Of a stretch of 64,000 nucleotides of DNA, positions 4,489-62,942 are shown piece by piece. The DNA is from Chrysomallon squamiferum (lineage: Eukaryota; Animalia; Mollusca), in assembly GCA_012295275.1 (NCBI GenBank), contig CM022671.1, forward strand, positions 22,630,001 through 22,694,000, read 5' to 3'. The position numbers and the translations under genes were made by a program. Each line of letters starts with the position of its first letter. The stretch's first letter is position 1. The notes beneath the pieces are model-generated. The model was not told the origin of the DNA. It saw only the letters and a program-made list of their open reading frames with translations, and did no database searches.

Positions 4489-4520
<32 letters not shown>

Positions 4521-4870: not shown

Positions 4871-4918
<48 letters not shown>

Positions 4919-5306: not shown

Positions 5307-5341
<35 letters not shown>

Positions 5342-6006: not shown

Positions 6007-6046
<40 letters not shown>

Positions 6047-6675: not shown

Positions 6676-6738
<63 letters not shown>

Positions 6739-8575
6739 TAAGATGATAAATTAGATATGAAAATAAAATTTAAAAAAATATATATATTTAAATTAAACTC
6801 TTGAACACACTCACCCATCCACCTACATAAACTCAAAAAAATGTTTAAAGACCATTAACTGATGTACTTTAGATATTATTCTTTCTAGAAAGGCTTCTTC
6901 TGATTCTGTTATTAGAACATTGATTTTTTTTTTGATTTTTTTTACTTTGTTTTTTTTTGATTTATGCTTATTTTCTCATTTTATTTCTAGAACAGTTTTT
7001 ATATTTGCTTGTAACGAAACTAATATAGAATTTTCTTTATTGTATGAGCTTATATTAATTTTCCTCTAGCATCTTCCTTTTTCTTTTTTAATTTTATTAT
7101 TCTTTTTTTTTTTTTTTAAAAACATCACCTTACTTTCACTTACACCTTGATTAAGTTTTATTTTATGGATACTTTTAACTAAAAGCGTGGAATTTAAACT
7201 GATTTAGCACTGTTGTAATTATAGCCTCATTGTATGGAGATGACAGTACCAGGCAGTCTAGCAATGGAAGTGAAAATCTGAATGAAGATTCTAACATGTC
7301 TTTCCCTGACAATTCAGTTCCTGATTTCTCACAGGACAGTAACGATGCCTCTGATCTCAGAGTTGGTGAGTGTGAGTTGATTTTGAATTTTTTTTTTTTT
7401 TTTTTTTTTTTTTTATCTGACTGATTGTTATAGTTGTAAACCTCTGGAGAGATGCAGAAATAAGTATAAATATATTCTGGATATTTCTGAGTTTAGTTTT
7501 ATTTATTTTCTTATCCATTGTTAATCAGTAATGAAAGAAGGATACAGTGACTTGTTTGTTAAATTAGTTTCTGTAATGTATTTTAAAAGCTTAATGAATT
7601 TTCCTTTTCCTGTTTAATTTATAAGTAAACTTCAGACACAGTAATTATTATTTTTTGTTTTTTACTCGATAAATTTTCAATTTGATGTTAAATGGGTACG
7701 CAAGGTAGTGTCAGAAATACAAAAAAATCTAAATTTGGTTTTAATATATTTGCAAAAAATTGTTTTGTTTTTGTTCGATTTTTTTTTCTCAATAAAATGT
7801 GACCATAAAGTAATAAGAGCAAAATAAGTAGTTTAATCTTGTTGGTGTCATTTTGTAGATAAAAATTAAAAGAATAAAACTATACCAATACATATAAAAA
7901 ATCCCTATGAGTGTGTGTATGTGTGTGTATGTATAGACAAGTGTATACACACACACATGTATTACTGCAGAGTTCATCTTAGATCTGTGTACAAATATTG
8001 CTATCCTTATTTCCTTTCATTTTACAAACAGTTTGGCTTTGTTGTATTTTAGCTATGAGAATAATCAGAGATGAAAAGGACAGACTAATGAAGAATGGAG
8101 ACGACACAAATGGTGAGATTAAGAATTTTTGTTCAGTTATTTATTTTTATTATATTTATTTATTAGTATTTTTAAAGTATTTGTCAGTTTAATTACAGAA
8201 TGTATTGGGTTTTTTTACTTATTATTTATTTATTTAAATAAAAACTGATAAAAATATGTTATTTCCTTATTTAAATTAATAGGTTTGAAACCTTTTGTGG
8301 GATTGTTTTAGATATAATTTTTTTTAATTAATATATATAAATATAGATGTGTGTGTGTGTGTGTTTTCTTTCTTACTTACAATTTCTCCTTTAAACATCC
8401 AAATTTGTTTTATTTTTAACTTTACTTTTTCGTTGTACACTTCCTAGATCCTAAATACTTTTTATTATTATTGTTATTATTTTTAATTTCAGATTCAGAG
8501 CCTCCTGTCTTGGAGCCAGAAACAGATGAACCATTAACAAAAAAACCGAGAAGTGAAAACTCTGGATCTAGTTGA
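1300..8575 (+). CDS. BCL7: BCL7 family protein (BAF/SWI-SNF subunit), 5'-partial; first coding exon lies upstream of the window
   Basis: Exon 1300-1358 encodes (W)EKKWVNIGDTSMRIFKWVP, the BCL7 N-terminal signature. The frame continues through GT-AG, phase-consistent exons 2539-2561, 2969-3056, 5024-5191, 7225-7365, 8053-8112 and 8493-8575 (...EPPVLEPETDEPLTKKPRSENSGSS*). Candidate poly(A) signal AATAAA at 9427-9432. Confidence 0.88.
1545..2240. repeat. Intronic tandem repeat, about 5 degenerate copies of a 110-150 bp unit
   Basis: The anchor GATAAAATAAGCCAAATCT recurs near 1550, 1662, 1811, 1948 and 2090, each followed by TTTCATGGATTG(C/T)AGGATC...CTCAGTGAC-like text. Confidence 0.75.
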
Positions 8576-10552
8576 AATTTAGCTACGGCATAATTTTGTT
8601 AAATTTAATCTTGTCACTGATGTGTGTGGTGCAACAAACTTATTCACATTTCAACCACTTCTGTCCTTGTGTGGCATTATTGCTTTTAAGACGGAAGAGT
8701 TATCTCCCTTTACATGATCACTCTTCACAAAAGGCTTAATTCACAATTTTTTTTTAAATGAAATTCATTTTATATCTTTCATCATTTTTATTTTTTCAAA
8801 TAATTATATTATTATTATCATCATCATCATCATCGTCGTCGTCATATTTTGTTTTTCCAAATAATACTTAAAATTAATTTGGACAATTTGTTTGTTTTGA
8901 GAAATCATGTTGCATTCCCCACCAATTCAGCACATCACCTGTGGAATAAATTTTAGTCTTTTTATATCAGGCAGCAGTTTTGGTCATTGATGTTTATATA
9001 ATGATAGCCAATGAAATTTTTCTTATCAAAAATGAAAAATAAATAATTATATGTGTATATAATTTATCTTATCATCATTAACATCTAACTGTAATAGTTA
9101 AAGTGACAAAAGTGTGTGTTTTTTTGTTATTGTTGAAAATGCAATATATCCTTCCCCAAAAATGTAGTTATATTTTATATTTTTTTAAAATTTTTTTTTT
9201 TAAATTAATAATTTATTAATTTTTTAAATTATATAATTAATTTATTTCTATTTATTTATTTTTATTTATTTTTATTTTTATTTTTTTAAATTTTTTGAGC
9301 TACCAATGTGCCAACATTGAAAAAACTTGAAGGACTTTTTTTTTCCACAATTCATGTCAGTGGTGGCTGGCAAATTTCAAATTCATCATCATAATCTTCA
9401 AAACATCTGTATATGTGTGCTATGAAAATAAATACACTGAAACAACACAATTGTTTGTTGTTTTTTTTCTACCACATTTTTTAAATTGTTCTTTATTTAG
9501 TTGATTTTCTCTTATAGATATAACCATATTTGTTTTACTTAAATATTTATCTTTGTTATTATTATTATTATTAATAATTAATTTTTTTTTTTTTTTCGGT
9601 TTGCAATGACTGGATTTTTATTTTCATAATTTTTATAAAATTCTTAAGATTTCACCTTAAGAGTTACAATTCAAGCATTACATACAGGACTGTTTATACA
9701 GCATGATTCAGTTGCATGTAAGAAAACGTATAAAAAAAAAAAAAATATATATATTAGATATTCCTCCCCAACTACAAGAATCAATATTTGAACAACAAAA
9801 AAACCCACACACTTTCACTTAAATACTTTTTAATAATTTTTTCTTCTAACATTTGCCTGCTTGGCATACATTCTACAAAAAGACAGAAACAAAAAAAGAG
9901 AAAACAAATACTAAACATAACCTCAAGAAGAATCTGTGACAGAATGAATTGGGTTGTACAAGTTAATCCACAATTACTGAATATGTTCGTATAATTCAAA
10001 GTTACGATAGAAAACTTTTTCAACTTGAGTACACTTTTCATTATTACTAAATTACTAGCATTATGCATATTGATTATCTGTGCAATAAGCAGACAATGCA
10101 AGCTTGCTATTAATTCTACACTATTCACAATATTAACTGCAAACTAATGACCAAAACATCAAATTCAAAAAAATAAAACGTCCGCCAGATGCAGTTAAAA
10201 TTAAAACCTTTTCAGATTGAACATTGTGGAAAATAAAAATGACTTGGTAATCAGAAAACACAAACAAAAACAATATTTTACACAGCTATATGGACGGGTC
10301 AAGAGGTTTTTTTTCCGTTAAAATATTTTTTACTATTATCTTTTTTTAAACAAACTTTACTGAAGTGTATATTATTACATTTGTGTTAGTAACAAAATAC
10401 AAATTTCACTGAAAAAGTTCATTTATTTAGATTTTTTTTTTCCTTTTGTGATTAGTTACTTTGGTTTATTTATTTATATATATTTATTTATTTATTTATA
10501 TATTTTTGGAGCCAAGATTAATAATTTTAAGTATAATATTTCATGAGTTGAT

Positions 10553-10607
<55 letters not shown>

Positions 10608-11107
10608 CGTAAGGCTTTTATTGTAATGTAATGCACTGCATTTATTATTTTATTTATTTAATTTAAATATGAAAAAATAAAATCAATAAAAATATAATGA
10701 ATTTAAAAAGAAATGAAATCTAGAATTTTCCACTTAAGAAACAACTGATACAAAATTGTGTAGAATAATTAATAACAAGCCCACACAAATTTCTCTTCAA
10801 TACAAAGAAATGGAAAGACAGGTGAAAAAAAGAGTCAAAGAAGGAGAACAGGTAATACATGTTTTTGAGTGTACATTTTGTTTCTATAAATAGATATCTA
10901 CAAATGAGGTATTTAAAAAAAAAATTAAATGAAAAATAATCCAAATAATAAAAAAAAAAATAAAAAAAAAAATAAAAAAAAAAAAAAAAAAAAAATAAAA
11001 TAAAATAATATTAAAAAAAATTAGTAATATGTAATGCCAGAAGAAATATGTTAGTAATTAGCACCAATCAGCTAATCCAGAATTATCACAACAAAAAATA
11101 GTAATGA

Positions 11108-11166
<59 letters not shown>

Positions 11167-11395
11167 ATTTAAATTTAATAAAACAGATCAAGAGTGAACA
11201 TTATATTGTTTACATACAAGTAAATAACAGCTCTAAATTCAGATTTGTGTTTTCTGGAAAAGCCTAAAAATGGGATGAGTTTATATAATTAAAAAAAAAA
11301 AAAAAAAAAAATATTTACAAAAAAGTAAAGCATGTTTTAAAATAACAACCATGTGAAAGCAGTTTTACATAAAACAATATTCAATTGAGCACCTG

Positions 11396-11431
<36 letters not shown>

Positions 11432-12204
11432 GCTATGTAGAAAAAATATCTTCAACCATTCTGAAATGTTATTATGGTACTTTTTATGCAATAATGTAAT
11501 ATTTCTTGCAAGCAAGCATTCTGTAAAGCTTCTATTTTTCAAAATAATTATTACAAGAGAATTCCTTTCTCTTTTTGACAGAAGTGAAAATAAGAATGAA
11601 AGAAAAATCTATAAAAATGAAAAATTATATAAAAAAAAGTTTTCTTTGCACCAGTGCATTAAAATGGTTTAATAATAATTATGACAATTACTTAACATAC
11701 AAGCAGGTCATGTATATTGTGCTTTCCAGTAACAACAATTTAATTATATAAAAAAAAAAACACAATAGACTAAAGAAATAATGAAATGAATACAACCAGA
11801 ACAACCATTACAATGTACCAAAATTAAAACAAACATAAAAAAAATTAAAATTTTAAATATACAAATATATATATATAAAAAATATAAAACAAACAAAAAA
11901 TTGATTTTGTAAAACAGTAATAACAAATAACAAAAAAAAAAAAAAAAGAATTTACAAATAAAACAAAAAAATAAAAAATCTAAAAAAGTAATTTACGAAT
12001 GAAACGACAAAGTAACAGAAAAGTAACAACAATAATCCCTTGTTGTGAAACAACCAATTGTGAGCAGTGAAAGTGTCACAATTTTTTATATTTTAAAAAG
12101 AAATAAAAAACAATAATAAAGGAAAAGAATACTAAAGTTAAATACAACACACTTGAGCAGTGTAGGTGTGTGTATAGTGTGGTAGACAGAAGCACTGGAG
12201 TCAC

Positions 12205-13046
12205 TCAGTAGATGGCGGTTTCAATGCGTCTGCGAGCTGTTCTCATCTTCAAACTGCCATTTGTAAGAGGAGAGGTTGGGGGATTTCTGTAAATAAATAA
12301 ATACATATATATATTTTCTTTTAAATTAATTGTGCAAAAATCTCACTCTGTGTGTGTGTGCATGCATGCATGCATGCACATACTTTTACATAATTCACGT
12401 TTGTATTTTGCTCATATAAGATTAATTACATTAAAAGAAAACATCCCAATCTGTTTTGCTTTCTAATGTAGCACACTTAAATACAACCAAACCTGAAATG
12501 CCATGCTCAGTTAAAAGGGATACATAGTAAGTAAAAAAAAATAAATAATAATATTACATTGTCAGTCATTAATGATTTATATCAAAGGATCGGTGGTGGT
12601 AAACTAGTGTATGATGATTATGTACAGTACTAATATTTTCTTGTCACTCAGTCTTTTAAGTGCTATGCTTGAACCCCAAACACATTTGTGATAATATCTG
12701 TTTGAAATAATATAACAAATATGTCTTAATGACATTTATTATCAACATCTGTTAGTGCTAAAGAATAGTTTTTTTATTTTTATTAACATAAAATATAAAG
12801 GTGTCTGATTTGGCTGTCTGGTATTTTGACCTACCTGCGTGTTCTTTCTCTCAGAGTTGTGGGTGTGAGTGCAGAAAGAGCCTGCATGTTGGCTGTCAGA
12901 GCCTCTACCTCGCGTTTAAGTCGTGTCGGAGTCTCAACGGAAAGACTTCTGAAATTTAAAATTAATCCAGAATAAAAATTTGATAAGAGTTTTAGAAACA
13001 GAACAGAAAATAATGTGTACTTAGTGATGAGTAAAATTAAATGAAT

Positions 13047-13080
<34 letters not shown>

Positions 13081-16000
13081 ATAATCACCCACCTGTAACA
13101 AAATGTATATTAGAAATTTCAGCAGCTGGGTATGGGTAATATGTTGTGGTATATTTCAAATACTAAGTAGTTTATGCATGACTTCAGAATTTGTAAGAGT
13201 CACATAATTTTAGTGCAATAACTTTCACTTAATGTAAGTTTATCATAGTACTGCAGCCTTAGAATTGAACCTTGATTTTGTGATACACTTTTTTCTTCTT
13301 CTGGTTATAATGATCTGACACTTTTACAATTATATGTCAAGTCTTTTTTTTTTTTTCATAAACAAAAAATCCAGCATACACATAGCTCTGTTTTTCAAAA
13401 TTTTGATTATTTCCAGGGATAATTACAAAACATTTAATACTCAAAAACAAGATAGCAAAATCATGTAACACATTTCAGGATTGTTTAGCATGAACATTTT
13501 AAACTCAGGAGTTACAATTACGAAAGTGTGTGTATGTTTAACACCTACCCCATTCTGGTTCCATTCCTTTGTTTGACCAACTCTTTTGGAGTTTCGATGT
13601 AGAAGGGTGAGTACAGCTTGACATCCGATCTGCATGAACGGGGTGGTGTTTTAAACGCTCCCCTTTTTGAGTCTCTCTTTGAAATTTTGGGTGACAGAAC
13701 CTTTCCTTCTTCAAGTCTGGTCCTTCGACGAGTGGACATTCTGAATCTCTATTTTATTAAAAAAAAAAAAAAATTAAATATTAAAAAGATATTACATTTC
13801 AATAAATGTAAGTCATGAGCTGAATTAAATAATAAATAATAACATACATTTTACATAAAAGTAAAAGTAAAAGTAAAAGTAAAGTAGAATAAAGTAGAAT
13901 AAAGTAGAATTAGAAGTAAATAAAAGTAAAAATAAAGTAATGTAATGCAATGCAATGTAAAATAAAATAAAATAAAAGTAAAAGTAAAAATAAAAGTAAT
14001 AATAACTAAATAAAATGGTTAATACAAATAACTAATTAAAATATACTCTGTAATCTCTTGGAATACATGAAATAATAAAACATAGATATCTAAAGAAAAG
14101 ATTAATGATTTTCAAGTTGTAGAAAACAAGGAATATATTACAACATTAAAACTTTACAGGAAGTTATTTTTATTTATTATTAATATTAATTTTTAGCTTT
14201 TTGTTATTGAATTATTGTTTATGTTTGTTTTCTTTGCAAAAAAACAATCTAATGATTTATGACCAATGCACCCAACACAACTGTATTCTGGAGTTCTGAT
14301 AAAATATTCCTTTGCATGAAATATTGTTATAATGAAAATGAAGAATAAATCTTTGATAATCAAATAATTGTTGTTTTTTTTTAATGCACTTTTATTTACA
14401 TTAGAATATTTCCTTGGACATTAAAGAACATTTAAATGTGACCATTTGGAAATGTAGACATTTTAATGGGTAATAAAAACCTATGGAATTATGTTAAATC
14501 AGTTTATGTACGTGAGTGATCAAACATCAAAGCCCAGTACCTTACAGAAATAAACATGTAACATGTCATTGTGTTCAGGCCTCTTTTTTTTTTTTTTTTT
14601 GTTTTGATTGTTTTGAACCTTTATTTTGTTTTGTCCTTCTTTCTCACATGGCCCACCACCTGTCTTCTCACCACAGCTTCTGGACAACAAGAACATCAAT
14701 TACCACATGCTAACAGTCAAAGCTATAAAACACCAAGAAGAGCACAGCCCCACAATTACATTACATAAACCAGTGCTAATCCCTGCTGTTGCTCAAATCA
14801 CACACTGAAGTAACAAGTGGACTGAGACAGGCCTCAGCCAGTACACACAGTTGCTAGGAACAACAGAACCCCTGAGGGATCTCTGTGAAGCAATTAAGCT
14901 GGCACAACATGGGCCTCCTCCCACAGGAGGAGTTAACAGAGGGATAGGGGAAACAAAGGAAGCCTTCTCAGCTATTCCCTGAGGTCGTATGGTGTTGGAG
15001 AAGTTAATCTTTAATCAGACGAAATTTACATTATTTTTTCTTCTTCTTTAATTCCTTTCAATTCAGATTATGGTAATGATGGTTTAGGTTGAAGGTGATA
15101 CAACAGTTGTATAAATGTGACCATCTGTTGTATCTTTTTCTATTTTTTTTAAAAAAATAAAAAATTACTGGATAACTTGAAATATTTTGTGCCTAACAAG
15201 TATCTATTGCAGATAATCTTAGATTTATGTAAAGCTGTGCTTTGATTAAAAAAAAAAAAAGAGAAAAGAAAGAAAAAAATAATTATAAAAATCATGAGGC
15301 AGTTATCAGACTAATGTTAGTAAATTAGTTATATTTATTAATGTCATTATTTCATTATTATTATTAATTTATTTTTATTCACTTGTTTATAAATTAATAT
15401 TTATTTATTTATTTATTTTATATATTTTATATATTTTATATACTTTATTTTTGGACAGAATTCAAATAAAGCAATCCACTGGACAACTGTCCAGGGCACA
15501 CATTTTAGTATTGTATTGCAAAAACATGAATATAATTCTCTTCAGCTGTCACTCTGTTAGGATGTCTCACCTGCTAACTGAATATTACCCTTTAGGTTAT
15601 AATGCACCTGTATATATTCAGTCAAAACTGAATTTATGTATGTCAAAACATATTCTATTTTTGGCTCAAGCATTTTTGTTTTGTTTTACATGCAAAAAAA
15701 AAAAAAAAAACAGTATACATATATTAATCTTGATCAATAATGAACTTTTTTATTGTTGTTCTTTAATTTATTTTTGAAGGGGTTGGATGTAGTTTTTGAA
15801 TTGAAGATTGTTTTTAATTATATTTTTTAAGTGATTTATATGTTTAAAAATTAAAGTGAGTTATTTAATATACTAATAACACAGGCTTTTCTTTCACCAA
15901 AATAAAAATCTGAAACTATTTATTTAGGTAAAGATACATGTGTAATTCTGGAAAATAGGCTAACAGAACAAATCTGACCTTTAACAGGGTAAGCCATTCA

Positions 16001-19605: not shown

Positions 19606-19678
19606 AGGTTTCGGCGAGGCTCGAACTCGCGACCTTCTGCGTGTTAAGCAGACGTGATAACCACTACACCACGAAACC
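19606..19678 (-). tRNA. tRNA-Val (AAC)
   Basis: 73-nt cloverleaf GGTTTCGTGGTGTAGTGGTTATCACGTCTGCTT-AAC-ACGCAGAAGGTCGCGAGTTCGAGCCTCGCCGAAACCT, with A and B boxes and a T5 terminator right after. Confidence 0.95.
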
Positions 19679-19947
19679 GTTGTAAACAAATTTGTTTAAG
19701 AAGCCCTTATGTCCGTATATATGAAAATAATTACAATCCATAGCTCTAAGTAGATAGCAAAATTTTTGAAACGTCGAAAAGAAATAAAACTAACATGTGT
19801 GTCGATCAGCAGTTTGGCTTTATAACCAAAATGGCACTGCAAACTGAGTCAGAACGTTCTCACTTCGTCGAATATCATAACACTACCGCACTCGCTCCAT
19901 ACGTTTTTCATCATCAGTCTGCATTTTCAGATTCCAATAGTTACGTA

Positions 19948-20020
19948 GGTTTCGTGGTGTAGTGGTTATCACGTCTGCTTTACACGCAGAAGGTCGCGAG
20001 TTCGAGCCTCGCCGGAACCT
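19948..20020 (+). tRNA. tRNA-Val (TAC)
   Basis: Same body, anticodon TAC at 19981-19983, stems pair, TTTT about 10 nt downstream. Confidence 0.95.
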
Positions 20021-20220
20021 TGGTAATTACTTTTGATCAAGTTTCTATTTTATAATATTTATTACGAGTTCTAACTTGTTTTGTGTGTCTGTTTACTTTA
20101 TATATTTTAGTATTTGTAGAAACAGAAGAAAGAAAAGTATCTCTTTTAATAATGTACCCAAAGTCCCTTTTAATGTGACGCTAATTTCAAAATATAAAAG
20201 GTTTTTTTGGGGGTAATCGA

Positions 20221-20255
<35 letters not shown>

Positions 20256-20968
20256 TCGTTAAAATTAATTAGTAAATAAATAGTATTTTGGAGGATAAAC
20301 ATAATAATTCATCGCCTACATAATTAAAACTAGGTGCATTAATTCATCGACTGTTGCACTGAAAAGTATTTAGTCGACGTGAATTAATAATGTACTTGAT
20401 CAAATTGTTGCTACAGTTTTTTCAAATACACCTTTTTAACAATGCACTGAAGTTAAAATTTACCAGTTAATAAAATTAATAGATCATTAATTTTTACGGG
20501 CTATTTTGCAGCTATCTGTTGTTTTGTTCGTGGCTTATATAAAATGGTTATTATTATTATTATAATTGTTTTTTTTTTTATTTTTTATTTTTTTAAATTG
20601 ACTAGATCGCTTTGTCTTGTCAAATAAACCAATTTTTCTCTCATATCGTTGCCGATCTGTGTAAATTATTTATTAATTTAATTTAATTTAATTTAATTTT
20701 AGGTGCAGAAATAAGACACGCAGTCCGCTTTTAACGACCGAGTTCCGTTCCATTGACCAGGTCGTTAAGCGACATTTCAGCTGGTAATGGGTTTGTGTTA
20801 TCTGTCTTTTGATAGTTTTAATTTTGCACCGTTTTGAAAGTACATATTAAAAAAATAAAATAAAAAATAAATAAATAATGAGAGAGAAATGAATTGATAA
20901 CTGCAACCAAATCAGAATTTACTTAATGGTGGCAGTAGAAATAACTTTTGCAGTAAAATGTTAACTAA

Positions 20969-21041
20969 AGGTTCCGGCGAGGCTCGAACTCGCGACCTTC
21001 TGCGTGTAAAGCAGACGTGATAACCACTACACCACGAAACC
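20969..21041 (-). tRNA. tRNA-Val (TAC)
   Basis: Identical to the 19948 copy, on the minus strand; TTTT downstream. Confidence 0.95.
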
Positions 21042-21289
21042 TGTTATACCTAAGCTTTCTACGAAAGTCTTTAGGTGCGAAATCCACAAAACCTCTTCGT
21101 GATAATGCAAGAATAAATAATGTCAGTAACAACCGAAGACGTAATAACCAAAAATTTTTTTTTAAATTCGGTTGCATTTTTTACGATTAAGAAATGGTGG
21201 AGAAAAAATAATTATAAAATAGTTTAAAAGGAAAGCATAACTAACTTTGTTTACAATTATTATGCTTTCATTGAAATTAAATCATTGTC

Positions 21290-22200
21290 GGTTTCGTGGT
21301 GCTTGGTTTTAATATATTCTGGAGACCAGTTTGGAAATGGATACATTACTGAATTTACTGACTTAGATTTTAGAACAGTTCATCATGTAATATATACAGA
21401 TAGTAAATTATATAGATATGGAAAAATCTCAAGTAGTATATGTCCAGTGTGTTTGAACGATGATGAAAATTTGTGCCATTTATTTTTGTATTGTGAAGAA
21501 TTGTCGGAATTAATATCTGTCATTCATGAAATATGTATTCAAATATTTAAGAAAACCGTTTTTTCTTTAGGTCAGTTAAAAAGATTATTAATATTTGGAT
21601 GTTTTCTAAGAACTGAAAATTGTTCATATAATAGAATTTATTAATATTGTTCTTTCAATTTATGGAATATCAGTGTTCAAGAGGCGCGTGATAGCTCAAT
21701 TCAAAGGAACAAACATTAATATAATACATTTTTTTTTTAGACATTATGTGTATCAGTGTTTCGAAATCATTCTAAATCAATATCGTATTCGAAACAAACT
21801 TTCAATTTTCATTAACAAATACATTAAGGATAATGCTTTTCTAGAATTTAAACATGATATACTTATTTTCAGATATCCTTTAGCAAACAAAATAATGAAT
21901 ATCATTGTATCATAAAAAAGGATAAAAAAAAAAAAAAAAAAAAAAAACACATTCATTTTTTTACTATAAAATACAGTTAATATATGTGAATGTTCTGAGT
22001 AAATAATTATGTGTGCGTGTGAGTGTGAGTGAGTGTGTGAGTGCATGACATTTTTTTTGTATGTTTGATATTTATTGTTTTAATGGATTTTTTATTATTA
22101 TTATTATTTATGTACAAAAATTATTTAAAGATATATAAATAAATAAATCAATAAACTCGTGCTTAACACGCATAAGGAAAGTTCGAGACTTGTGGCGTCT
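21290..22200 (+). pseudogene. Split, decayed tRNA-Val (AAC) pseudogene interrupted by a LINE fragment
   Basis: 5' remnant GGTTTCGTGGTGCTT at 21290-21304. 3' remnant CTCGTGCTTAACACGCATAAGGAAAGTTCGAG at 22156-22187. Confidence 0.75.
21305..22155 (+). mobile_element. 5'-truncated non-LTR retrotransposon (Tx1/L1-like): ORF2 C-terminus plus 3' UTR
   Basis: Frameshifted reading DLDFRTVHHVIYT...CPVCLNDDENLCHLFLYC...LLIFG...NIVLSIYGISVFKRR... contains the CX2CX7-8HX4C zinc knuckle found downstream of the RT in L1/Tx1 ORF2. Stop at 21915; AATAAA-rich tail ending at 22155. Confidence 0.8.
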
Positions 22201-22640
22201 TTTTTTATTTTAATTACAGTGAAACATTTAGTAATTAAATAATTACATTTAACTAAAAAATAGAAGCATAAAACAAGGATTTAGAATTCTCACAGTAATT
22301 TGCTAAAGACTGTCCTCCTAGCTTTGTTGAACTGATTGTAAATCTCGATGAAATGGTTAATAACGTGACATATTCAATATCATGTTACTCAGACTCGCCA
22401 AGCTGATTCTTTTCACTTTCATAAGGAAAACAGAATGATAGAAACATTCAGTGAAAACTTTTCACAACTTATTTTGCTACGTCTTCATTGTTTTTTGTTT
22501 TTTCAGTGAGATATCTTCTTACAGTATCAAGTAACATTGTCGTCATGTCTTTTATCTAGATTAGTCATTCATTAAGCAAGAATGTAAATATATATAAATA
22601 AACAATATACCAACAATACTCAAATCTATCAAGTACTGAC

Positions 22641-22675
<35 letters not shown>

Positions 22676-23003
22676 ATAATTGTGATCAAATTTGCCACTA
22701 AAATTGAGTAAAGGTTGTTTAACAGTTCATTTCAATGAACTATTTTCCTTGAAGAACATCTTTCTCAGTTTGGGTTGTAAAAAAAAAAAGGAACAACACG
22801 AAACGATAATTATGTAACTGTAATAAAAACAATAATTTTTAGCAACAACAATGAAGCTTTCCAGACAAACATTTTATATTTTGTTTCGCACCTTTTTAAT
22901 AGTTATTCGGGACCTCATACATTCATATACTATCACTTGTAGGTTTCTTGGTGGTAACATTTTAAAAGATTTTCAGTGTGAAATTAATTAATTATTTTAC
23001 AAC

Positions 23004-23076
23004 GGTTTCGTGGTGTAGTGGTTATCACGTCTGCTTCACACGCAGAAGGTCGCGAGTTCGACCCTCGCCGGAACCT
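23004..23076 (+). tRNA. tRNA-Val (CAC)
   Basis: Same body, anticodon CAC at 23037-23039, T-loop TTCGACC, T5 downstream. Lies in the spacer of the inverted duplication. Confidence 0.95.
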
Positions 23077-23771
23077 CGTTAAATTTTTCTAATATTGAAA
23101 GTTGTTTTTGTATCATTATTGCGTTTTAAAACGGCTCCAGTTATTATTAAAATTTTTCATATAATATACTTATTGTTATACTTATACTTATATAATATAT
23201 TGTTTATATATATTTACATTCTTGCTTAATGAATGACTCATCTAGATAAAAGACATGACGACAGTGTTACGGTGACACTATAAGAAGATATCTCACTGGA
23301 ACAAGAAACAATGAAGACAGCGAAATGAGTTGTGAAAAGTTTTCACTGAATGTTTCTATCCTTCTGCTAACCTTCTGGAAGTGAAAATCTTGGCGAGTTT
23401 GAGTAACATGAAATTGAGTATATCACGCTATTAAAAGTACTTGGTTTTTAACATTTTTATCGAGCTTTACAAAACTGGTAGGATGTAGTGTGTAAATAAA
23501 ACAGAGAAAGAACAGCAATTCTGAAATGTATCGTGATGTGACAGTCTTTAACAAAACTCCATATGGAATTATGTAGAATGTTTTGAATGATTACCTTTCC
23601 TTGAAATATCTTTCTTGACGTCTTATTAACTGTCAGATTTTATTGCTGAATAGCAAAAAATTCTCACATCTAAATCTTTGTTTTATGTTTCTATTTTCAC
23701 TTAGATATAATTCTTTAATTACTCAATGTTCCATTGTAATGGGAACAGAATAATTTAAATGTAGAAACAGA

Positions 23772-23836
23772 AGACTCCTGCGAGGCCCGAACTCGCCACC
23801 TTCTGCATGTAAAGCAGACGTGATAACCACGAAACC
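23772..23836 (-). pseudogene. tRNA-Val (TAC) pseudogene
   Basis: GGTTTCGTGG--------TTATCACGTCTGCTTTACATGCAGAAGGTGGCGAGTTCGGGCCTCGCAGGAGTC: 8-nt D-arm/A-box deletion, B-box change and broken acceptor stem. Confidence 0.9.
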
Positions 23837-24118
23837 GATAAATAGTTAACCGCAATGAAACCATAATAATTATAAACAACATTAGTTACAATTTCCTGAG
23901 ACATTATTATTATTATTATTATTATTATTTTCTATTTCTACGTGTCGTTATAATCGAAGAAACTGTAACTGGGAAATGCAAAAAGCAAACTTCCTGTAAT
24001 GTACTGGGCCATCGGTTATTGCTGTATGAATTATCACTTGTAGATTTCAAGCTGTAGGATGCCGCTTCATGCTTTAAAAACAACAACAAAACAAAACAAA
24101 AACAACAACAATTACAAC

Positions 24119-24191
24119 GGTTTCGTGGTGTAGTGGTTATCACGTCTGCTTTACACGCAGAAGGTCGCGAGTTCGAGCCTCGCCGGAACCT
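24119..24191 (+). tRNA. tRNA-Val (TAC)
   Basis: Identical to the 19948 copy; TTTT about 10 nt downstream. Confidence 0.95.
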
Positions 24192-24563
24192 AGTTGACAT
24201 TTTACTGCAAATTTTATTTCCGTTTCAACCACTTGGTTGCAGTTACTAATTTATTCTCTCTCTGATTTTTATTTTATATTATTATTTTTTAAATTTAATA
24301 TTACTTTCAGAACAACAATTGGAAATATATTTTGAAAATTTGCTCATTTGTAATTTCTCTGCTTTCATTATAAATAATCGATACTGATGAAACTTTCTAA
24401 TGCAGAAAACAGTTATGACGTAAATTATCGGGCCATTTAATGTATGCATTCATATATTATTATCACTTTTAGGTGCATGGTGTTGCAGTCACAGCGTCTT
24501 AAGGTTTTCAACGAAATAGTAGCTTACAGCGGTTTCGTGGTGTAGTGGTTATCACGTCTGCTT

Positions 24564-26531
24564 GCTTCCGGGCGACGAAATGAAGAAAGTCAGTTAACAT
24601 AAACTCTTTTACATGAAAAACGAAATACAGAACTACTGCAAGATATAGTTTTCAGCAAGTTCAGTGTTTCACGATTGCCTTTCCCACTTTTTGACAATGT
24701 TGCCTAAGGAATTTTCTTTACAAACTAATAAATTAATAATAACAACAACAATAATAATCTGAAGGAAAGCACGAGGGAAAAAATTAAATACCGTATATAC
24801 TTGTGTACAAGGCGACCTTATGTATAAGTCGATGTGTATTTTAAGACCAAAATTGCGTCATTTTAGGTATTACTTGTGTATAAGTCGACTGTAGATTCCA
24901 GGCACCGTCACTTTGTTTTCGATTTGTCGGTAATGGATATTAATGATGATTGCAATATTATTTCACCAAATTCTTTACAATTACACAAGTCAGTTTTGTT
25001 TATGAAATTAGGAGTCTGCATTCCTAGATCATTGCACGACGCCGTACTGACGGTTTTTTCGCTTTAAAATGTATTGTTATGTCATTAAACGGAAGAATAT
25101 CATGTTTTACATTCATATTTGGTTTTGTTATTTAATTTTTCAAAAATTTTTATACGATAAAATTATATTTTTGAAAAGCTGAAAGACCGCGATTATTTTG
25201 GATGCATCCCGCAGCAAAAAATAGTCAAAATGGCGACTCTTCAGCAACAGCTACAAAAGCATTACCTCCAAAATATTACCTTAATATAGTCTCCCAAAAA
25301 TTTGACTTATACACAAGCATATACGGTACATTCATTTTAAAAACATTCACAATGTCACGTGAATGTGTGTTATTTTACTTTTTAGACTGGGTGCCATTCA
25401 TTGATTTGATTTTGGGGTATAGCAGTCGTTGCAGTTAAAACAATAATGCCTGGTCGAGGAAAGGGAAAACATAGCATTCAGTATGTTCAGAATGAGGAGC
25501 CAACCTTTATTCGTCAATTTAAAGAAAGAATCGGATATGATGAAGGGCCTGTTGTTAATACCAAGCGACAACGACTGGAGATTAATGACGAAGATGATGA
25601 TGATGATGATGATAAACCAGAGATAGTTGTATTAAAAGAGGGTGATTTAACAGCAGAAGGAAGTGGAAAAACTGGACAAAAATAAGAAAGCTGATGATGA
25701 ATCTACAACAGTTAGAAAGGGGAAGATTGTATTTACTAAACCCACAAAGAAAGAAAATGACACTAAGAAGTCTAAATTAAATCTGTCATCATCACACGAA
25801 TCAAAAAAGGAACTGAAGAAAGACAAGAAACCTTTGGTGAAAGAAGTCAGGAATTCTAATCTTCTGTCATTTGATGATGAAGAGGAAGATGATACTTGAA
25901 GTAATGACCATGTTAGGAAGAGATGAAATCTATTATACTGAAAAAATCCATCAGTTTGTGTTAAATTGATTAGTATTGTCAAAAAAAAAATGTTCATATA
26001 GAACAACCCACAGATGTGAGAAATTGTAGAATAAAGTTTTGAAAACAAAGATGGAGGATAAAATAAAACAAAATCTGAACTGTACATTAAAGTGATTTTT
26101 TATGATTTTATTTAACCTTCCTAATTTTGTGATATGCTATTATTTATATGTATCTTTATACTGCAAATATATAAAAGCTGACTTATAGCCAGATATTAGC
26201 TTGTAAATAAATTTCACAATAATTTTTGATCTATCATTTGTCTGAAAATATCTTAGCCAAACAGTTGAAAAGTATACTTGTTTCCCTAAAATTATTTGCT
26301 AAATAAACTTGGAGCAGAGTGGTTAGACCATAATAGATTACAGGATTACTAATCTTATATCAGTTTTTCCATTTAGCTTGTGCCCAACAAATGTTAAAGG
26401 CCTGCTAACTAAAGTGCTTATAAAATATTTGTTCCTGCAGATTGATGTATGGCTCATAGACTGGTCATACTGGGGTTAATACATGTTCATAATAAAATGT
26501 GTTGAAGGTTTAAAAAAAAAAAAAAAAAAAA
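24564..26531 (+). pseudogene. KIAA1143: Processed retrocopy of a KIAA1143 homolog (CDS 25446-25899 with one +1 frameshift)
   Basis: Protein motifs IQYVQNEEPTFIRQFKERIGYDEGPVVNTKR...PEIVVLKEGDLTAE / EVEKL...GKIVFTKP...VRNSNLLSFDDEEEDDT match KIAA1143. Removing one G at 25659-25660 fuses the two ORFs. The CDS is intronless, with AATAAA at 26491-26496, a poly(A) run from 26512, and a 13-bp TSD. Confidence 0.9.
24791..25326. mobile_element. Non-autonomous Tc1/mariner-superfamily (pogo/Tc2-like) MITE, 536 bp, TA target-site duplication
   Basis: Left end TA|CCGTATATACTTGTGTACAAGGCGA. Right end TTGACTTATACACAAGCATATACGG|TA, an imperfect inverted repeat. TGTATAAGTCGA is repeated subterminally at ~24821 and ~24877. 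No transposase ORF. Confidence 0.85.
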
Positions 26532-28011
26532 ATCACATCTGCTTAACACGCAGAAGGTCGCAAGTTCGAGCCTCGCCGAAACCTCGTATAAATTTTTATT
26601 ATTATTTATAATTATGAATTAATTATAAAAATTAATGATGTAATAAACGAATTCTAATTTTTAGTAATTACAAAATATGTTTCTTGTGGTTTTCTAATTT
26701 AAACCTATGTGAAATAAGTCTTTCGGTTTTTTTTTTTTGTTTGTTTAGGATCTATTTTGTTTTGTAATATGTTATTGAACTTGATTTATCTTTTTAAATT
26801 TTGTTTGTTCTTTCGTTCTTAATTTATTTATTGTCAGTAGCAATAGTAGTAGTAGCAGCAGCAGAAGCAGTAGTTTTTGTAGAAACAGTAGCAATAGCAC
26901 ATACGAATAAAAAAAAAAAACATTCTGCCAATTATACCAAAAAAAAAAAAAAAAAATAATAATAATAATAAAAATAAACTATTGTTGATAAGGTTACATG
27001 ATATATTTCATTCATGCGTAGATAAAAAGGACGTTGAGATCATCTCAATGAATTTACATTAGATCATCTCAACATTTTGACTCCTGTGATCAAAAAATCA
27101 ACAGGCTTAACCAGTAACTGCAAAAAAAACAACCTTCAGTTAATGATGTCTTATGTATTTTGTTAATTTTTCATTAATATATATTTGACTTATGATTTCT
27201 TTCACGAATTTTATCACAGTAATTTGTATGTGTCATAGATTAACTGTTCGGTCAACAGTATTACATACTGTGTTAAACTGTAATAAAGTTCAAATAAATA
27301 TATGAAAACTTGGATTTTGTTTGCAAGTTCAAAATTAAGTTAAATTCATTTGATGTTGAGAATAATAATAATAATAATAATAATAATTATAATATAAAAA
27401 TTTTAAAAATAAAAACCCCATAAAATGTAAATACAAATATATAAATTCTTTATTTCATTGATTCTCTTCAATACATCAAATACATAAAAACAATTTCAAT
27501 AATGATTTTTAATAACTGATATTCACATATATTTAATTGAATAAAGTATTTTCTAAGCAATTTGTAACAATTAAACCATATACAAATATCAGTAATTGTA
27601 TTTGCTCTACCTGATCACTGTTATAAATTAATGTTCAATAACAAATTTTTATATTAACATCTTTATCAAAATACATTCATGATTATTTATCTTAAAAAAC
27701 TTTTTAGATAAGATATTTATGTAGCTTTTTCTTTTTTTTTATCAAATCTCCAAACTGAAAAATTATTATTTTTCAATGGTAGTTAGTAACTTGGAATATT
27801 AAAATAAATTCTTGAGTATTTTCTACAAGAGCCATTATATAAGATATTTAAGTAGCATCTTGAATTTACTGTTAAAACTAAACATTAATGACTGCAAGGA
27901 ATGTTTCAGATTCAATGAGAAGGTTGTTCAATATTCCTTATTTACCTCATTTGCCTCAATGCAGTTACAGCCATGTACATATAAAATAATACAATGTCAA
28001 GTTGAAATTGT

Positions 28012-31000: not shown

Positions 31001-33618
31001 CAGATAATTTTGAAAAAGGTCTACAAGACATGCTCAAAATAAATTTACGTATGACCTGTTTAAAAACAAAACTTTAAATTAACAGTTCATTAATCTCTGT
31101 AACTAACAAACTAATATAAGACAGAGAACAAACAAGTAGTAAGATGAAAATAAAATTTTAAAACTCACCAGTCCAGAGTTTAGCTGATAAAAGTCATCTC
31201 CTGACAATAATATTCCAGGATATGAGGAAAACGTCATAACTGAACCAGGAACACGTTCTAGCAAATTAATAAATAACAAACAGTAAAAAAACAAACAAAC
31301 ACAAAACAAAAAGACTATAAGAATTTAATATGAAACAAGAAACTTATGTTCTTTAATTTTTTTTATCTTTATTTAAGCACAATGATATTTCAAATTTTAT
31401 TTTGTTATTGTTTTCTTTTTAAACAACACAGTTTTTTTACATCATCATGTCAATGACAAGAGTCATGACATCATATCTTTACAAGTTTTGGTTTAATAAA
31501 ATGATTTCATAAAATAACTGAAATGCTGGATTCAAATACCTGTCAGATGTGTACATGAAGTCTATATAATGTCCAAACATTGTTAAATTTTAAAACTTTC
31601 TGATCTTGTTGTACAAGCTGTTTTTTAGACCATATTAGTTATACGTATATATTCTTTATACGTTATAAATAAAATGAGTTAGAATTGTTTTGACATGCCT
31701 GAAGATGATTCTGTAAGTGTGTAAGGAAATGTATATTTCTTGAGGATTCTCAGCATGGAGTTGTACGTGCTCCACGTAACTTGAGAAACATACAGATCCT
31801 TGTTGCCTGGCAACACTTTAATCAGAGCAGAGCACGATCCTGATCCTTTGACTTTAGTTGAAGTTGGTTTGTGCAGAGCAGGTTCCAGATCTTCCATGTT
31901 ATCACCAATTTGTAGCATACTGGTGTTGGAAAATGAAACAAGTCAGAAGATAGTTCAAACATTATTTATAAAACAAAGTGAAAATATTTGTCATACTTTT
32001 TAAATTAAACAGACAGCAAATAAAACAGATTCTTTTAAAATATTTTTACATATTTATTTCCGGTTTGAAATTATTTGCAAGTATAATTTTATTTTGTTGA
32101 ACTAAAAAATAGTAGATTTATGGATTAAATAAATAAACAGGACAAAATCAAGAAAAGAGAAAAGAAATATAAAGAAAGTAAAATCTTTTAAAAATGATAA
32201 TAAGAATTGTTAAATTTGTTTATAAATTTTTTAATAATAATAATAATAATAATAATAGTAGTAGTGGTAGTCGTAGTAGTAGTATTAGTAATAATAAAAT
32301 CGATTTTTTTAAAGAGCATAAAACTTACTAAAGTCCAAATATATCTATGTCCATGTGTGGTTTCCTGGGACTGTTAAAATATCCATCCTGAAGGCCTGCT
32401 ATTTGGTAGTAGAAAAGCTTAATCTGAAAATCAGAGAGAAATAACTGAACTTTTTGTTTTAATTAAGATTATAGTTATATTATATTAGTTTTGTGTGTCA
32501 CAGGTGACAACAAACAGTAGGAAATGTAATATGATCATAATTAGCTTTATTTAGATGGTAAAGCACAAATAACATGGATTTGATAATGAGTAATGCTTGG
32601 AATAGGAAATATTCCAGTGAGAAGTACTGATCCTCTGACTTGTCCTGCATCAGCCTTTTCACCCTGACTAGATGAAGAAATAGTTTCTTTTCTTAGTTTT
32701 CTAAATATAACTATGTATAAAACGATTTTGTTTTTATTTTTGCCTATTTTCTTGATGAAGAATGTTTATACATGAAAGTGTAGAAAAAATATTTATTACC
32801 TGTTCCCAGTATCTGTCATTTTTATGTGAGTGTATCTGAAATTTGATCCATTTCAAATTTCGAGTGAGAAATTGTCTCAGTCTCTGGCAAAATGGTGTGT
32901 ATGGTTCTGGACACGTGTATGCTGTGTTTCTGAAGTGTAAAGATATCAGTTCCTTCGTGATGTGACCCTCGGTCAAACCTGCTGCATAGGCCTGGACACT
33001 GTTCTCATTGACTGGGTTTGTTTGTATATCAAGGTACGCCCAGCTGTAAACAAATGAATGGACACGATTCGAAAATATTTTTTTTTTCTTTTGAACAGGC
33101 TTAAACAGTAAAACATAACTAAATAAATAAATATACCATAAATTAATAACATAGTCGAGGCGTTTAAAAGTTGTGTTAAGAATGGCCTCAAACGACGGTA
33201 AAGAGGTTACTGATTAAAATGAAGTGTATTTTTGAATAATAATAATAATTATAATACATTAATAGTAACAACGATAATAATAATAATAATAAACCCCACA
33301 ACAACTACGTGCACACCACAATTATTATAACTTAGAATCACAGTGATACAGAATGATGCGAATGATGGCGAGTATTTAATAATTTATTCTTAATTCAGTT
33401 ATCGAGTCTTGACACTTCACAAAAACATACCCGGTTTGGTTGACACTATTGACAAACTCTGCTTTTGCCGCCCAGTTGGAAATTGAAGTATTTGACACCT
33501 TATATGTTTTAGTATATTGATTATACGAAACATACAGAATTTGCTTTTCAGGCAAAGATTTCACATGAAAAGAAAATGAAAACAAAAACAAAACAATGAA
33601 CACTGGAGTACCCTCCAT
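28012..33618 (-). CDS. PLBD2: Phospholipase B-like 2 (lysosomal Ntn-hydrolase), 560 aa, 11 exons
   Basis: Exons 33618-33431, 33043-32800, 32423-32329, 31919-31699, 31257-31169, 30613-30456, 30286-30191, 29688-29617, 29285-29133, 28824-28665 and 28218-28012 are all phase-consistent. Signal peptide plus motifs TGWAYL, GSGSCSALIK (catalytic Cys), FSSYPG..SGDDFY, ETTIGN, NSGTYNNEW, RYNDFQHDPLS and HGGTDMK. Confidence 0.95.
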
Positions 33619-34178
33619 TTTACAATCATGTGGTCTGAGATCACGTGCATAGTTTTAACTTAGTGTCTCAGTTTCGGAAATCTCCGATAATGAAAATTAC
33701 TTCCTGTTTAGTGGGCGTGTAGTAAACGACAGTTTTAAAAAAGTTATTTCACGAAATTTTGGAATATCATTTTTGTAACAGTGGTTGTTGCCATTATTCC
33801 ACTAGTTAACTATCATTATATATGTTTTAATACCGACAAATTTAATAAGTTTTAATTAAACACGAATATTAGATGATTAGAATTTAGATTGTCGGTCACT
33901 ACAGTAACACTGGGTCACCAGTGGGTGTCATCATGTCCAAAATAATTATTGCTATTTATTATCAATGTTTCTGTTAATAGTATTATTTAATAAATATTAA
34001 CAGAGAAATTTTTTAAATAACAAATCTGATTAAGGAATTATTTACGGATTACTCTGGACAAGATGATCACTAGGAAATAGAATACGACTGTCATTTGTGC
34101 CAAAATGTTTCAATTCAAATGTTTATAAAGGGTATATTATTATCTTGTGGTTTTAAGTGAAATAAGTGAGGAAAAAAA
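33619..34178. promoter_or_regulatory. Probable bidirectional promoter with E-box/CLEAR-like, ETS and GC-box motifs
   Basis: 560 bp separate the divergent ATGs. TCATGTG at 33626-33632, TCACGTG at 33641-33647, ACTTCCTG at 33699-33706, GGGCGTG at ~33713. Confidence 0.55.
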
Positions 34179-34928
34179 ATGAAAATTGTTAACGCCAAAA
34201 GTTTGACATTATATGCCAGTTCTGGATCACCAGCAGACAAAGAAGGTTATTTAATGAAGAAAGGGGAAGTGAACAAAACATTCCAAAAACGATGGTTTGT
34301 TTTGAGAGGAAACCTTTTCTTCTACTATGAAAAAAAGGGTGACAGAGAACCCATTGGTGTAATTGTTTTGGAAGGATGTACAATAGAACTAGCGGAAAAC
34401 GCTGACAATTTTGCATTCCAAATATACTTTTCATCAGATGGCTTTCGCACCTATGTCATAAGTGCTGACACTCAGGAAAATATGGAATCATGGATGAAAG
34501 CACTGTCTGCTGCTAGTTATGAATACACCCAGCTACTGGTAGCAGATTTACAGCAGAAAAGTCTGGAAGTCAGCGCCGAACAGCAACGAAAAGTTGTAGA
34601 AGAAGCCGATCGACAGAGCCACATACTGGCACAGAACTACACAGAAAGTCTGAAAGAATCGAACGTCTTGAATGTTCCACCAACTCAGAGAACAAATCCT
34701 TTTAACAGTAGAAAAAGTTCAGGTTCAGATTATGATGCACCAAATCTGTTCAATGCAATGGAACTAGGAGCTCCAGAGCCGTACACGAAATCACATTTGA
34801 AACCATCGGCAGACAAAAAGTCAACATTTTTGACTATGCATTCAACATTACAGAGACAAATGGAGGTGTTTACTGCTGAATGGAATGCAAAACATTCAAA
34901 TGGTGTTGAAAAAAATCAAAATATGTAA
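34179..34928 (+). CDS. PHETA1: Sesquipedalian / PHETA (FAM109, IPIP27) PH-domain endocytic adaptor, 249 aa, single coding exon
   Basis: N-terminal PH domain (KEGYLMKKGEVNKTFQKRWFVLRGNLFFYYEK...MESWMKALS), a coiled coil, an NPF motif, and a C-terminal F&H-type motif (STFLTMH). Confidence 0.9.
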   Translation: MKIVNAKSLTLYASSGSPADKEGYLMKKGEVNKTFQKRWFVLRGNLFFYYEKKGDREPIGVIVLEGCTIELAENADNFAFQIYFSSDGFRTYVISADTQENMESWMKALSAASYEYTQLLVADLQQKSLEVSAEQQRKVVEEADRQSHILAQNYTESLKESNVLNVPPTQRTNPFNSRKSSGSDYDAPNLFNAMELGAPEPYTKSHLKPSADKKSTFLTMHSTLQRQMEVFTAEWNAKHSNGVEKNQNM

Positions 34929-37553: not shown

Positions 37554-38361
37554 ATGTTCTGTTTGTTATTTTTGTATTTGTTCACTTTCATAACTCACTC
37601 AGTTTCTCAGCCTAAAGATTATGTCACCAAAGAGGAACTAGCAGTTCTACAAAACAGCATTCGGTTACTGGAAAGTAAAGTTCAGTCACTGGAAGTGCAG
37701 TTGAAAGCAAAACAAGGTAGTTACAAGTTGGTTATAATGATCAGATTAATAATAAATATAACTTTAATATATGACTGTATGTGCAAACTGGTTTTAATGA
37801 TCAAAATTAATAACAATCGTAACAGTAATATATGATTACATGTGCATAAAATTTTAAACGATATACATACATATATAAAAAAAAAAAAAATTATTTTCTA
37901 AATGAAACACATTTTATTTTGTAGATCGAACCCCACTGTTCAGTTTCAGGGCTGGATTCAGCTCTGATCCTGTTCCAGTGAAGTACAGCAATGGGCAGGA
38001 TGTTGTTTTTGATAGAGTCTATTACAACGATGGTAATGCATACATAGCACACTCTGGGAAGTTTCTCACTCAAGTCTCGGGACTCTACATGTTTAGTCTG
38101 CACGTTTTGCCAGCATCCGCAGAAATGGAATTTGAGATATTTAAAGCAGGCAGAGCTGTAGCCTCTGTGGTAGCTACAAGTTCAGGAGGAACAGAGAGCA
38201 TGCAGACGATAATGCATGTGACAAGGGGTGAAGAGGTCTGGGTGGTGAAACACTGGGGAGGCGACACTCTCCGTGGCTCGCTGTGGACATCGTTTAGTGG
38301 ATTTCTTCTGAGAAGTGACGAAGACAGTCCTCTGAATGGTGGCTCTGGTGTAGTAGGATGA
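37554..38361 (+). CDS. Secreted globular C1q-domain protein, 199 aa, 2 exons
   Basis: Exon 37554-37716 gives a signal peptide and short coiled coil. Exon 37925-38361 gives FSFRAG...VVFDRVYYNDGNAY...SGKF...SGLYMFS...GEEVWV...TSFSGFLL, a gC1q fold with no collagen repeat. Confidence 0.9.

Positions 38362-43843: not shown

Positions 43844-62942
<19,099 letters not shown>

Follow-up and report, generated by a model that had tools for sequence, protein, structure and literature searches.

A KIAA1143 transcript copy and a LINE fragment in split tRNA-Val genes of Chrysomallon squamiferum point to a Tx1-type lineage with a predicted nicking site at the D-loop end of tRNA genes

Introduction

A cluster of valine transfer RNA (tRNA) genes in the snail Chrysomallon squamiferum contains two gene copies that are each split by an insert. 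The cluster lies in a stretch of 64,000 nucleotides (nt), which was analysed as a whole and is referred to as the window (assembly GCA_012295275.1, contig CM022671.1, positions 22,630,001 to 22,694,000 of the forward strand). The insert at site 1 is a fragment of a long interspersed element (LINE), and the insert at site 2 is a copy of a transcript of the cellular gene KIAA1143. The locus raises the question of whether the same kind of enzyme could have written two such different RNAs into tRNA genes, and how it would have chosen its target. In our judgement both inserts were probably introduced by target-primed reverse transcription through a LINE lineage of the Tx1 type, the endonuclease of which is predicted to nick tRNA genes at the final D-loop base, A21.

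LINEs with specific targets are known, and so are retrocopies of messenger RNA (mRNA) made by the unspecific element L1; as a rule, each property is described on its own. According to passages of PMC3747384, L1 forms processed pseudogenes by moving mRNA in trans through its poly(A), and R2 and SART1 require their own 3′ untranslated region (UTR). An earlier note on this DNA had proposed that an enzyme specific for the anticodon arm of tRNA-Val made both insertions, and that the cluster serves as a landing pad for unrelated poly(A) RNA.

Results

A KIAA1143 copy splits a tRNA-Val(AAC) gene

The split gene and its KIAA1143 insert at site 2, as described in the earlier note, were confirmed. The two tRNA halves comprise nt 1-33 and nt 21-73 and share a target-site duplication of 13 bp, tRNA nt 21-33 (24551-24563 and 26532-26544, one mismatch). 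Both mismatches of the right half to the intact AAC gene are G-to-A changes at CpG. The poly(A) tail is part of a run of 21 A (26512-26532), the final A of which is tRNA nt 21. The insert has the marks of a processed copy, namely a templated poly(A) soon after an AATAAA signal and a flanking target-site duplication. The DUF4604 domain of KIAA1143 was matched in two frames of the insert (E 8.9e-15 and 0.031). The junctions and the frameshift of the coding region were read from the genome assembly alone.

The poly(A), the duplication and the DUF4604 match bear out the claim of an mRNA copy, but the insert does not correspond to a plain spliced mRNA. It retains an intron-like segment, and within it a 540-bp element with terminal inverted repeats, which we take to be a miniature inverted-repeat transposable element of the Tc1/mariner type. 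From its sequence, we interpret the insert as a retrocopied transcript from which the first intron had not yet been removed. Two RNA runs contained sequence words of 21200-26700 in shares of 0.20 and 0.18, near the exonic share of the insert; these values were not used as evidence.

The same features could belong to the snail's working KIAA1143 gene, a retrogene with an intron in its 5′ UTR, the frameshift being an assembly error. The 5′ segment does carry canonical donor and acceptor ends, and a single extra base is all that interrupts the coding region. The insert begins, however, directly at tRNA nt 33, which leaves no space for a promoter, and the adjoining half of the tRNA departs from the intact gene in only 2 of 53 letters, which suggests that the insertion is recent. 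A partly spliced transcript would also be expected to retain its first intron. A working gene is therefore regarded as quite improbable; it would be compatible with the insertion route proposed here.

A LINE fragment occupies a decayed tRNA-Val gene

The insert at site 1 is the 3′ part of a Tx1-like LINE, in agreement with the earlier note. The C-terminal part of its open reading frame 2 (ORF2) gave a zf-RVT match (E 1.9e-4) that falls short of the Pfam cut-off, and it shares 60-72% identity with the related protein P0121 over three frames. Both this insert and the one at site 2 lie in the tRNA sense orientation, as had been claimed. The probable 3′ UTR weakly resembles that of the relative L082 described below, with a score reached by 2 of 500 shuffles.

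The LINE belongs to a multicopy family, as is evident from contigs of four sequencing runs aligned to site 1. In run X1 the summed depth was about 3,000-15,000 over the LINE reading frame and 50-126 on most flank bins, a ratio that is not a copy number. One long family contig differs from the site 1 LINE by 47 letters and 7 gaps in 359. This comparison left out 21912-22117, within the LINE 3′ UTR, as repeats, and the contigs that cross the 5′ junction reach 21330, short of the 31-letter requirement.

The earlier note had the LINE begin right after tRNA nt 33, followed after its tail by a repeat of tRNA sequence. A decayed tRNA 3′ half is indeed present, scoring 40 against a best background of 31 among 2,492 background windows, but a duplication is not demonstrable. 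As this half is firm only from nt 29, the 3′ junction is placed at nt 21-29. The start after nt 33 was rejected as an established fact. Only nt 1-12 precede the insert, and the letters 21301-21304, taken in that note for tRNA nt 30-33, are assigned to the LINE, since the P0121 reading frame continues there and family contigs extend 5′ of 21301 in the LINE frame. Two origins of the 5′ junction are possible from the sequence: a junction at nt 11/12 that removed part of the target, or one at nt 33 with a 4-nt microhomology and a later deletion, which could yield the same letters.

Relatives of the LINE abut tRNA halves

A HMMER search with the LINE fragment yielded 135 relatives. A word-index search with the fragment gave no match among 110 candidates, and two scans of viral contigs found no relative of the LINE. 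An alignment of six long ORF2 relatives was used as query to collect 98 loci. Metagenome contigs contributed 80 of them, the best of 357 hits, and prokaryote genome records the other 18. The latter, L081-L098, are animal-type LINE loci within records of bacterial genomes assembled from metagenomes, one of them with a long eukaryote-like tRNA-Asp array; they are probably host contigs that were mis-binned.

Five of the 98 loci (L001, L002, L003, L081 and L082) share a clade with the window fragment. The sequence of L081 stops within ORF2 at either end. All four clade loci with a flank abut a tRNA half in the sense orientation, which upholds the targeting of tRNA genes. The claimed specificity for tRNA-Val and its anticodon arm had to be abandoned, because the relatives use Asp, Lys/Tyr, Gln and Ser-like genes.

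L082, the clade locus closest to the window fragment (60-67% identity to P0121), is a 5′-truncated copy within a tandem tRNA-Asp array. Nt 1-10 of the tRNA stand on its left, and poly(A) followed by nt 21-72 on its right. The locus contains 11 intact tRNA-Asp copies, and an adjoining, slightly overlapping stretch contains 24. No further split tRNA-Asp was found in the rest of the L082 array, and the two genomes from which L081 and L082 derive yielded no second copy of the L082 3′ end. Upstream of the array lies the remnant of another, far older LINE (L082:5697-6390; 26-44% identity to the long ORF2 queries).

L003 is preceded by nt 1-38 of a tRNA-Lys, beside an intact copy with a similar flank. 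On its right, poly(A) is joined to half of an intron-bearing tRNA (Rfam model positions 20-71, E 0.0011), which is tRNA-Tyr by our own reading. The 5′ junction of L002 lies at nt 33/34 of a tRNA-Gln (31 of 34 letters equal, E 0.017), and that of L001 at nt 26, behind a 26-letter 5′ part of a tRNA (E 0.5) which we take to be Ser-like. Both contigs end before the 3′ junction.

A motif survey found no split tRNA in the other 93 loci, many of which lack flanks. Among those with legible ends, 6 abut U2, 6 U1 and 3 5S genes, as labelled by eye and with Rfam. The Tx1-like elements at L005, L012, L021, L022, L023 and L075 have 3′ ends joined to the start of U1 small nuclear RNA (snRNA) genes; U1 is absent among the targets named in the legend to Figure 3 of PMC4494074. 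Read by eye, poly(A) is followed by U5 snRNA-like sequence in L071:5097-5170 and by U2-variant-like sequence in L049:5433-5500. At L097:3576-9692 a LINE appears to have entered a cluster of Gln and Gly tRNA genes, some 5 bases upstream of an intact tRNA-Gln; its branch in the reverse transcriptase (RT) tree lies next to the U1 group, outside the tRNA clade.

The 3′ junctions meet at one nucleotide

All three readable 3′ junctions (L082, L003 and site 2) lie at A21 regardless of tRNA type, with the poly(A) joined to nt 21. A junction at nt 22 is also possible, because A21 merges with the poly(A) tail. The 5′ junctions vary: nt 10 in L082, 11/12 or 33 at site 1, 26 in L001, 33 at site 2, 33/34 in L002 and 38 in L003. 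That of site 2 is nearly the same as that of L002. The fixed second cut after nt 33 proposed in the earlier note is not borne out, since the 5′ junctions differ among the relatives and site 1. The truncated copies (L082 and site 1) show loss of target and the full-length ones imply duplications, although these are too few for a rule.

Under target-primed reverse transcription the 3′ junction marks the first nick (PMC3747384, in part). The proposed first nick between nt 20 and 21 is thus supported, as the poly(A) of L082 and L003 is joined to nt 21 just as at site 2. The same shared junction argues, by inference, for the delivery of a host mRNA in trans. The sequences support the view that the fixed feature would be a cut where the D-loop ends, common across tRNA types, and that the first cut alone would be fixed.

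Coincidence would require that an unspecific L1-like element copied an mRNA into the tRNA cluster by chance, and that site 1 is an unrelated older event. That there is a single mRNA event, that the finding was chosen post hoc from many windows and that the site 1 junctions are blurred speak for it. Yet the relatives were fetched after the hypothesis had been set, and they lead to the same nucleotide. L1 prefers to insert at TTAAAA. The window contains 436 such words against 8 tRNA nt 21 sites, and these 8 among 128,000 strand positions correspond to about 6e-5 per random insertion. We consider coincidence highly improbable.

Phylogeny and the endonuclease

The window fragment was placed in a tree of C-terminal regions (42 rows with at least 110 aligned residues; P0257, an N-terminal piece, was left out). 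It groups with P0121 and L082 (support 100/99), then with L001 and L002 (99/97), and then with L003 (97/96). RT trees were computed without an outgroup from 111 rows, including 97 of the 98 loci (L055 was too short), and from a subset of 47 rows. They recover the same tRNA group (Shimodaira-Hasegawa-like approximate likelihood ratio test 95; 97/94), separate from the U2, U1 and 5S groups and beside them. Target labels on the RT tree require three changes, the minimum possible, and 0 of 200 shuffles were as low; near-copies favour such clustering. The zebrafish pol-like protein BAC82613.1 lies on the side of the tRNA clade in the 97/94 split, and the wider clade has named members from Mytilus and Patella (CAG2243758.1 of M. 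edulis, CAC5405809.1 of M. coruscus and KAK6165442.1 of Patella caerulea).

The full-length relatives P0123, P0127, P0133 and P0263 encode an ORF2 with an apurinic/apyrimidinic (AP) endonuclease, an RT and a C-terminal zinc-binding region; P0263 stands for a cluster of 55 members. Of this ORF2 the window fragment retains only the C-terminal part. The relatives carry the Exo_endo_phos domain at the N-terminus, and their best solved relatives are L1 ORF2 proteins. An ORF1 with CCHC zinc knuckles is a trait of the Tx1 clade. Such knuckles were detected in L001 (E 6.7e-9) and weakly in L002 (E 0.016), and none in L003; the window contains no ORF1. The lineage very likely belongs to the Tx1 clade.

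The best match of the L082 endonuclease is 2v0r, in a gap-free alignment. This structure is an L1 endonuclease chimera bearing the Tx1L loop, and the endonuclease hairpin loop is implicated in target choice in passages of PMC1950540. The betaB6-betaB5 hairpin loop has 11 residues in 9 of 11 proteins scanned (the other two gave no pattern match) and in L003. This is the length found in Tx1L; it compares with 9 residues in the U1 and U2 loci and with 13 in the single 5S locus examined. The loop of the tRNA clade starts mostly with arginine.

The tRNA-Val cluster and its surroundings

The window has a G+C content of 28%. Five intact tRNA-Val genes, one tRNA-Val pseudogene and the two split copies lie within 19.6-26.6 kb (Table 1). 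Some parts of the cluster are old inverted duplicates of one another, with 78-86% identity. Anticodons AAC, TAC and CAC occur on a nearly identical tRNA-Val body within 19606-24313. As paralogous flanks bear different anticodons (AAC at site 1 and TAC at the paralog), the sequence suggests that anticodons have switched within the cluster.

Exon-like frames elsewhere in the window belong to probable neurofibromin (NF1; 43844-61860, -) and phospholipase-B-like (37906-38361, +) genes, to a C1q domain (34170-34928, +) and to a sesquipedalian-like PH protein (32734-33213, -). The NF1 and phospholipase-B-like genes were recognised by eye and are presumed to be such. The PH-domain protein is 72% identical to its match in Gigantopelta aegis, 60% in Haliotis and 55% in Patella.

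Table 1. Annotated features of the tRNA-Val cluster and its two insertion sites; positions are counted from the first letter of the window
Feature	Position	Strand	Remark
tRNA-Val(AAC), intact	19606..19678	-	empty target
tRNA-Val(TAC), intact	19948..20020	+	
tRNA-Val(TAC), intact	20969..21041	-	
tRNA-Val nt 1-12 remnant, site 1	21290..21301	+	last letter common to tRNA and LINE
5′-truncated LINE ORF2 C-terminus (zf-RVT region), site 1	21301..21891	+	frameshifts near 21345 and 21626
Probable LINE 3′ UTR, site 1	21892..22155	+	internal A run 21924-21947, TG-rich patch, terminal AATAAA
Decayed tRNA-Val 3′ part, site 1	22154..22205	+	firm from nt 29 (22160); start at nt 21 compatible
tRNA-Val(CAC), intact	23004..23076	+	
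tRNA-Val(TAC) pseudogene	23776..23836	-	uninserted; 8-nt deletion; flanks paralogous to site 1 flanks, inverted
tRNA-Val(TAC), intact	24119..24191	+	
tRNA-Val nt 1-33, left half, site 2	24531..24563	+	0 mismatches to intact AAC copy
Probable first (5′ UTR) exon of KIAA1143 transcript	24564..24588	+	inferred from donor-like site 3′ of exon
Intron-like segment within insert	24589..25385	+	GT...pyrimidine tract, AG; splicing predicted from sequence
540-bp element with terminal inverted repeats	24789..25328	.	TA ends; 23 of first 28 letters match; in intron-like segment
KIAA1143 (DUF4604) coding region	25446..25899	+	uninterrupted save one frameshift (one extra base) near 25659
AATAAA signal and templated poly(A) tail	26491..26531	+	AATAAA at 26491
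tRNA-Val(AAC) nt 21-73, right half, site 2	26532..26584	+	2/53 mismatches to intact AAC copy

Discussion

We propose that the AP-type endonuclease of ORF2 would nick the bottom strand across from nt 20/21, immediately 3′ of the conserved G18-G19 at the end of the A box. The freed 3′ end would then prime reverse transcription on a poly(A) tail, usually that of the element itself and, in one case, that of a host transcript with its first intron. The second strand would be cut or joined at a variable place. If this place lies downstream, duplications would result, as with the 5′ junctions at nt 26-38 and the 13 bp of site 2; if it lies upstream, parts of the target would be deleted (nt 10 in L082 and nt 11/12 at site 1, both 5′-truncated). 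The ORF2 protein for the mRNA copy was probably supplied by a younger member of the family than the site 1 fragment, because this fragment is far more decayed than site 2.

The same lineage and events could be combined with another choice of site, in which the enzyme does not read the DNA but is tethered to RNA polymerase III factors, namely TFIIIC/TFIIIB at the A box. The targets (Val, Asp, Tyr, Lys and Gln) are alike in little beyond G18-G19-N-A21, and the cut borders the A box. Moreover, ORF1 of TRE5-A binds TFIIIB, and TRE5-A requires the B box (PMC5911963, in part). According to the same passages, tethered elements land in windows beside the gene, as TRE and NLTR elements do beside tRNA genes, and not at one nucleotide within it, whereas here 3 of 3 3′ junctions fall on one base. 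The clade also has a distinct form of the hairpin loop implicated in target choice. Tethering is thus rather unlikely, and recognition of the DNA by the endonuclease is preferred.

Several points weigh against this interpretation. The insert at site 2 contains no LINE sequence, so the mRNA and the LINE are linked by position alone and through one event, on which the landing pad idea also rests. The KIAA1143 copy may have lost coding introns, a presumption that its uninterrupted coding region would fit. At site 1 the 3′ junction is placed within nt 21-29 and no target-site duplication survives. No tRNA-like sequence was found among the 24 loose contig ends listed there (147 more are unlisted); those at 22155 are AT-rich matches of low agreement, from which no conclusion is drawn. 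The flank evidence comes from relatives in other genomes and not from further copies in C. squamiferum, and just two relatives (L082 and L003) give the 3′ junction. The contig of L003 may join two copies, because different tRNAs stand on its two sides. The tRNA match of L001 is weak and its Ser identity is our assumption; L001 and L002 have the same assembly prefix and could represent a single host. Finally, many of the 93 other loci have no flanks, and the metagenome sample is the best 80 of 357.

Several known elements resemble the proposed lineage in part. Mutsu is a member of the Tx1 clade that targets 5S rRNA genes. Dewa is said to be a zebrafish LINE of the Tx1 clade in tandem tRNA arrays, where it reportedly occupies varying array positions; the association of a Tx1-type LINE with tRNA arrays is shared, but the 3 readable 3′ junctions described here all lie at nt 21 inside the gene. 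Keno, an AP-endonuclease LINE at a fixed base of the multicopy U2 snRNA gene, is a similar case, and passages of PMC4494074 name Keno, Kibi, Koshi, Tx1L and Tx1-Mar as Tx1 families with fixed targets. In contrast to Keno and Mutsu, the snail lineage targets nt 21 of several tRNA types rather than U2 or 5S, and it is separate in the RT trees. NeSL-1_TV (tRNA-Pro), LIN15_SM (tRNA-Arg) and LIN25_SM (tRNA-Glu) are tRNA-gene-specific non-long-terminal-repeat elements (PMC4640811, in part); they are NeSL-related and have a restriction-like endonuclease, whereas the relatives of the snail lineage have an N-terminal AP endonuclease. Dada-tV transposons insert in tRNA-Val genes and also in other tRNA types, but they are DNA transposons, whose insertions in the anticodon arm have the opposite orientation and lack poly(A), as parts of PMC8869645 describe.

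Precedents for the cargo also exist. Tx1-Mar probably carries non-autonomous SINEU RNAs into its own target (PMC4494074, in part), so that a target-preferring Tx1 family is thought to move foreign RNA to its site. There the passenger is an amplified short interspersed element and the target is Mariner, while here a single cellular mRNA entered a tRNA gene. By analogy, the lineage may work like Keno and like SINEU/Tx1-Mar. L1 processed pseudogenes share with site 2 the poly(A) after AATAAA and the target-site duplication. They differ in that L1 integrates at dispersed T-tract/A junctions (PMC1950540, in part), whereas the KIAA1143 copy lies at the fixed target of the lineage.

A Tx1 element inside a tRNA gene is not described in the portions of PMC6719617, PMC11203168, PMC10294476, PMC2684134, PMC4889948 and PMC3623868 consulted. 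Neither an AP-endonuclease LINE at tRNA nt 21 nor a cellular mRNA at such a target was found in the literature searched; the lineage may be filed in Repbase Reports, and Figure 3 or the supplements of PMC4494074 may list tRNA targets.

We suggest tentatively, and with some doubt, that a widespread and undescribed Tx1 lineage, at least in molluscs, recognises the near-universal D-loop end G18-G19-N-A21 and accepts any poly(A) RNA as template. If this is true, a relaxed choice of RNA and a fixed target would be united in one lineage, whose cut falls on a single conserved base in many types of tRNA. Such a lineage would naturally write arbitrary mRNA into redundant tRNA genes in a site-specific way, combining an L1-like choice of RNA with an R2-like fidelity to the target, and its enzyme would be a candidate for the insertion of plain poly(A) RNA at redundant loci. 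With its own 11-residue loop, the clade would allow a direct test of how specificity arises in AP endonucleases. The activity of such a lineage would also account for some of the split tRNA pseudogenes in mollusc genomes.

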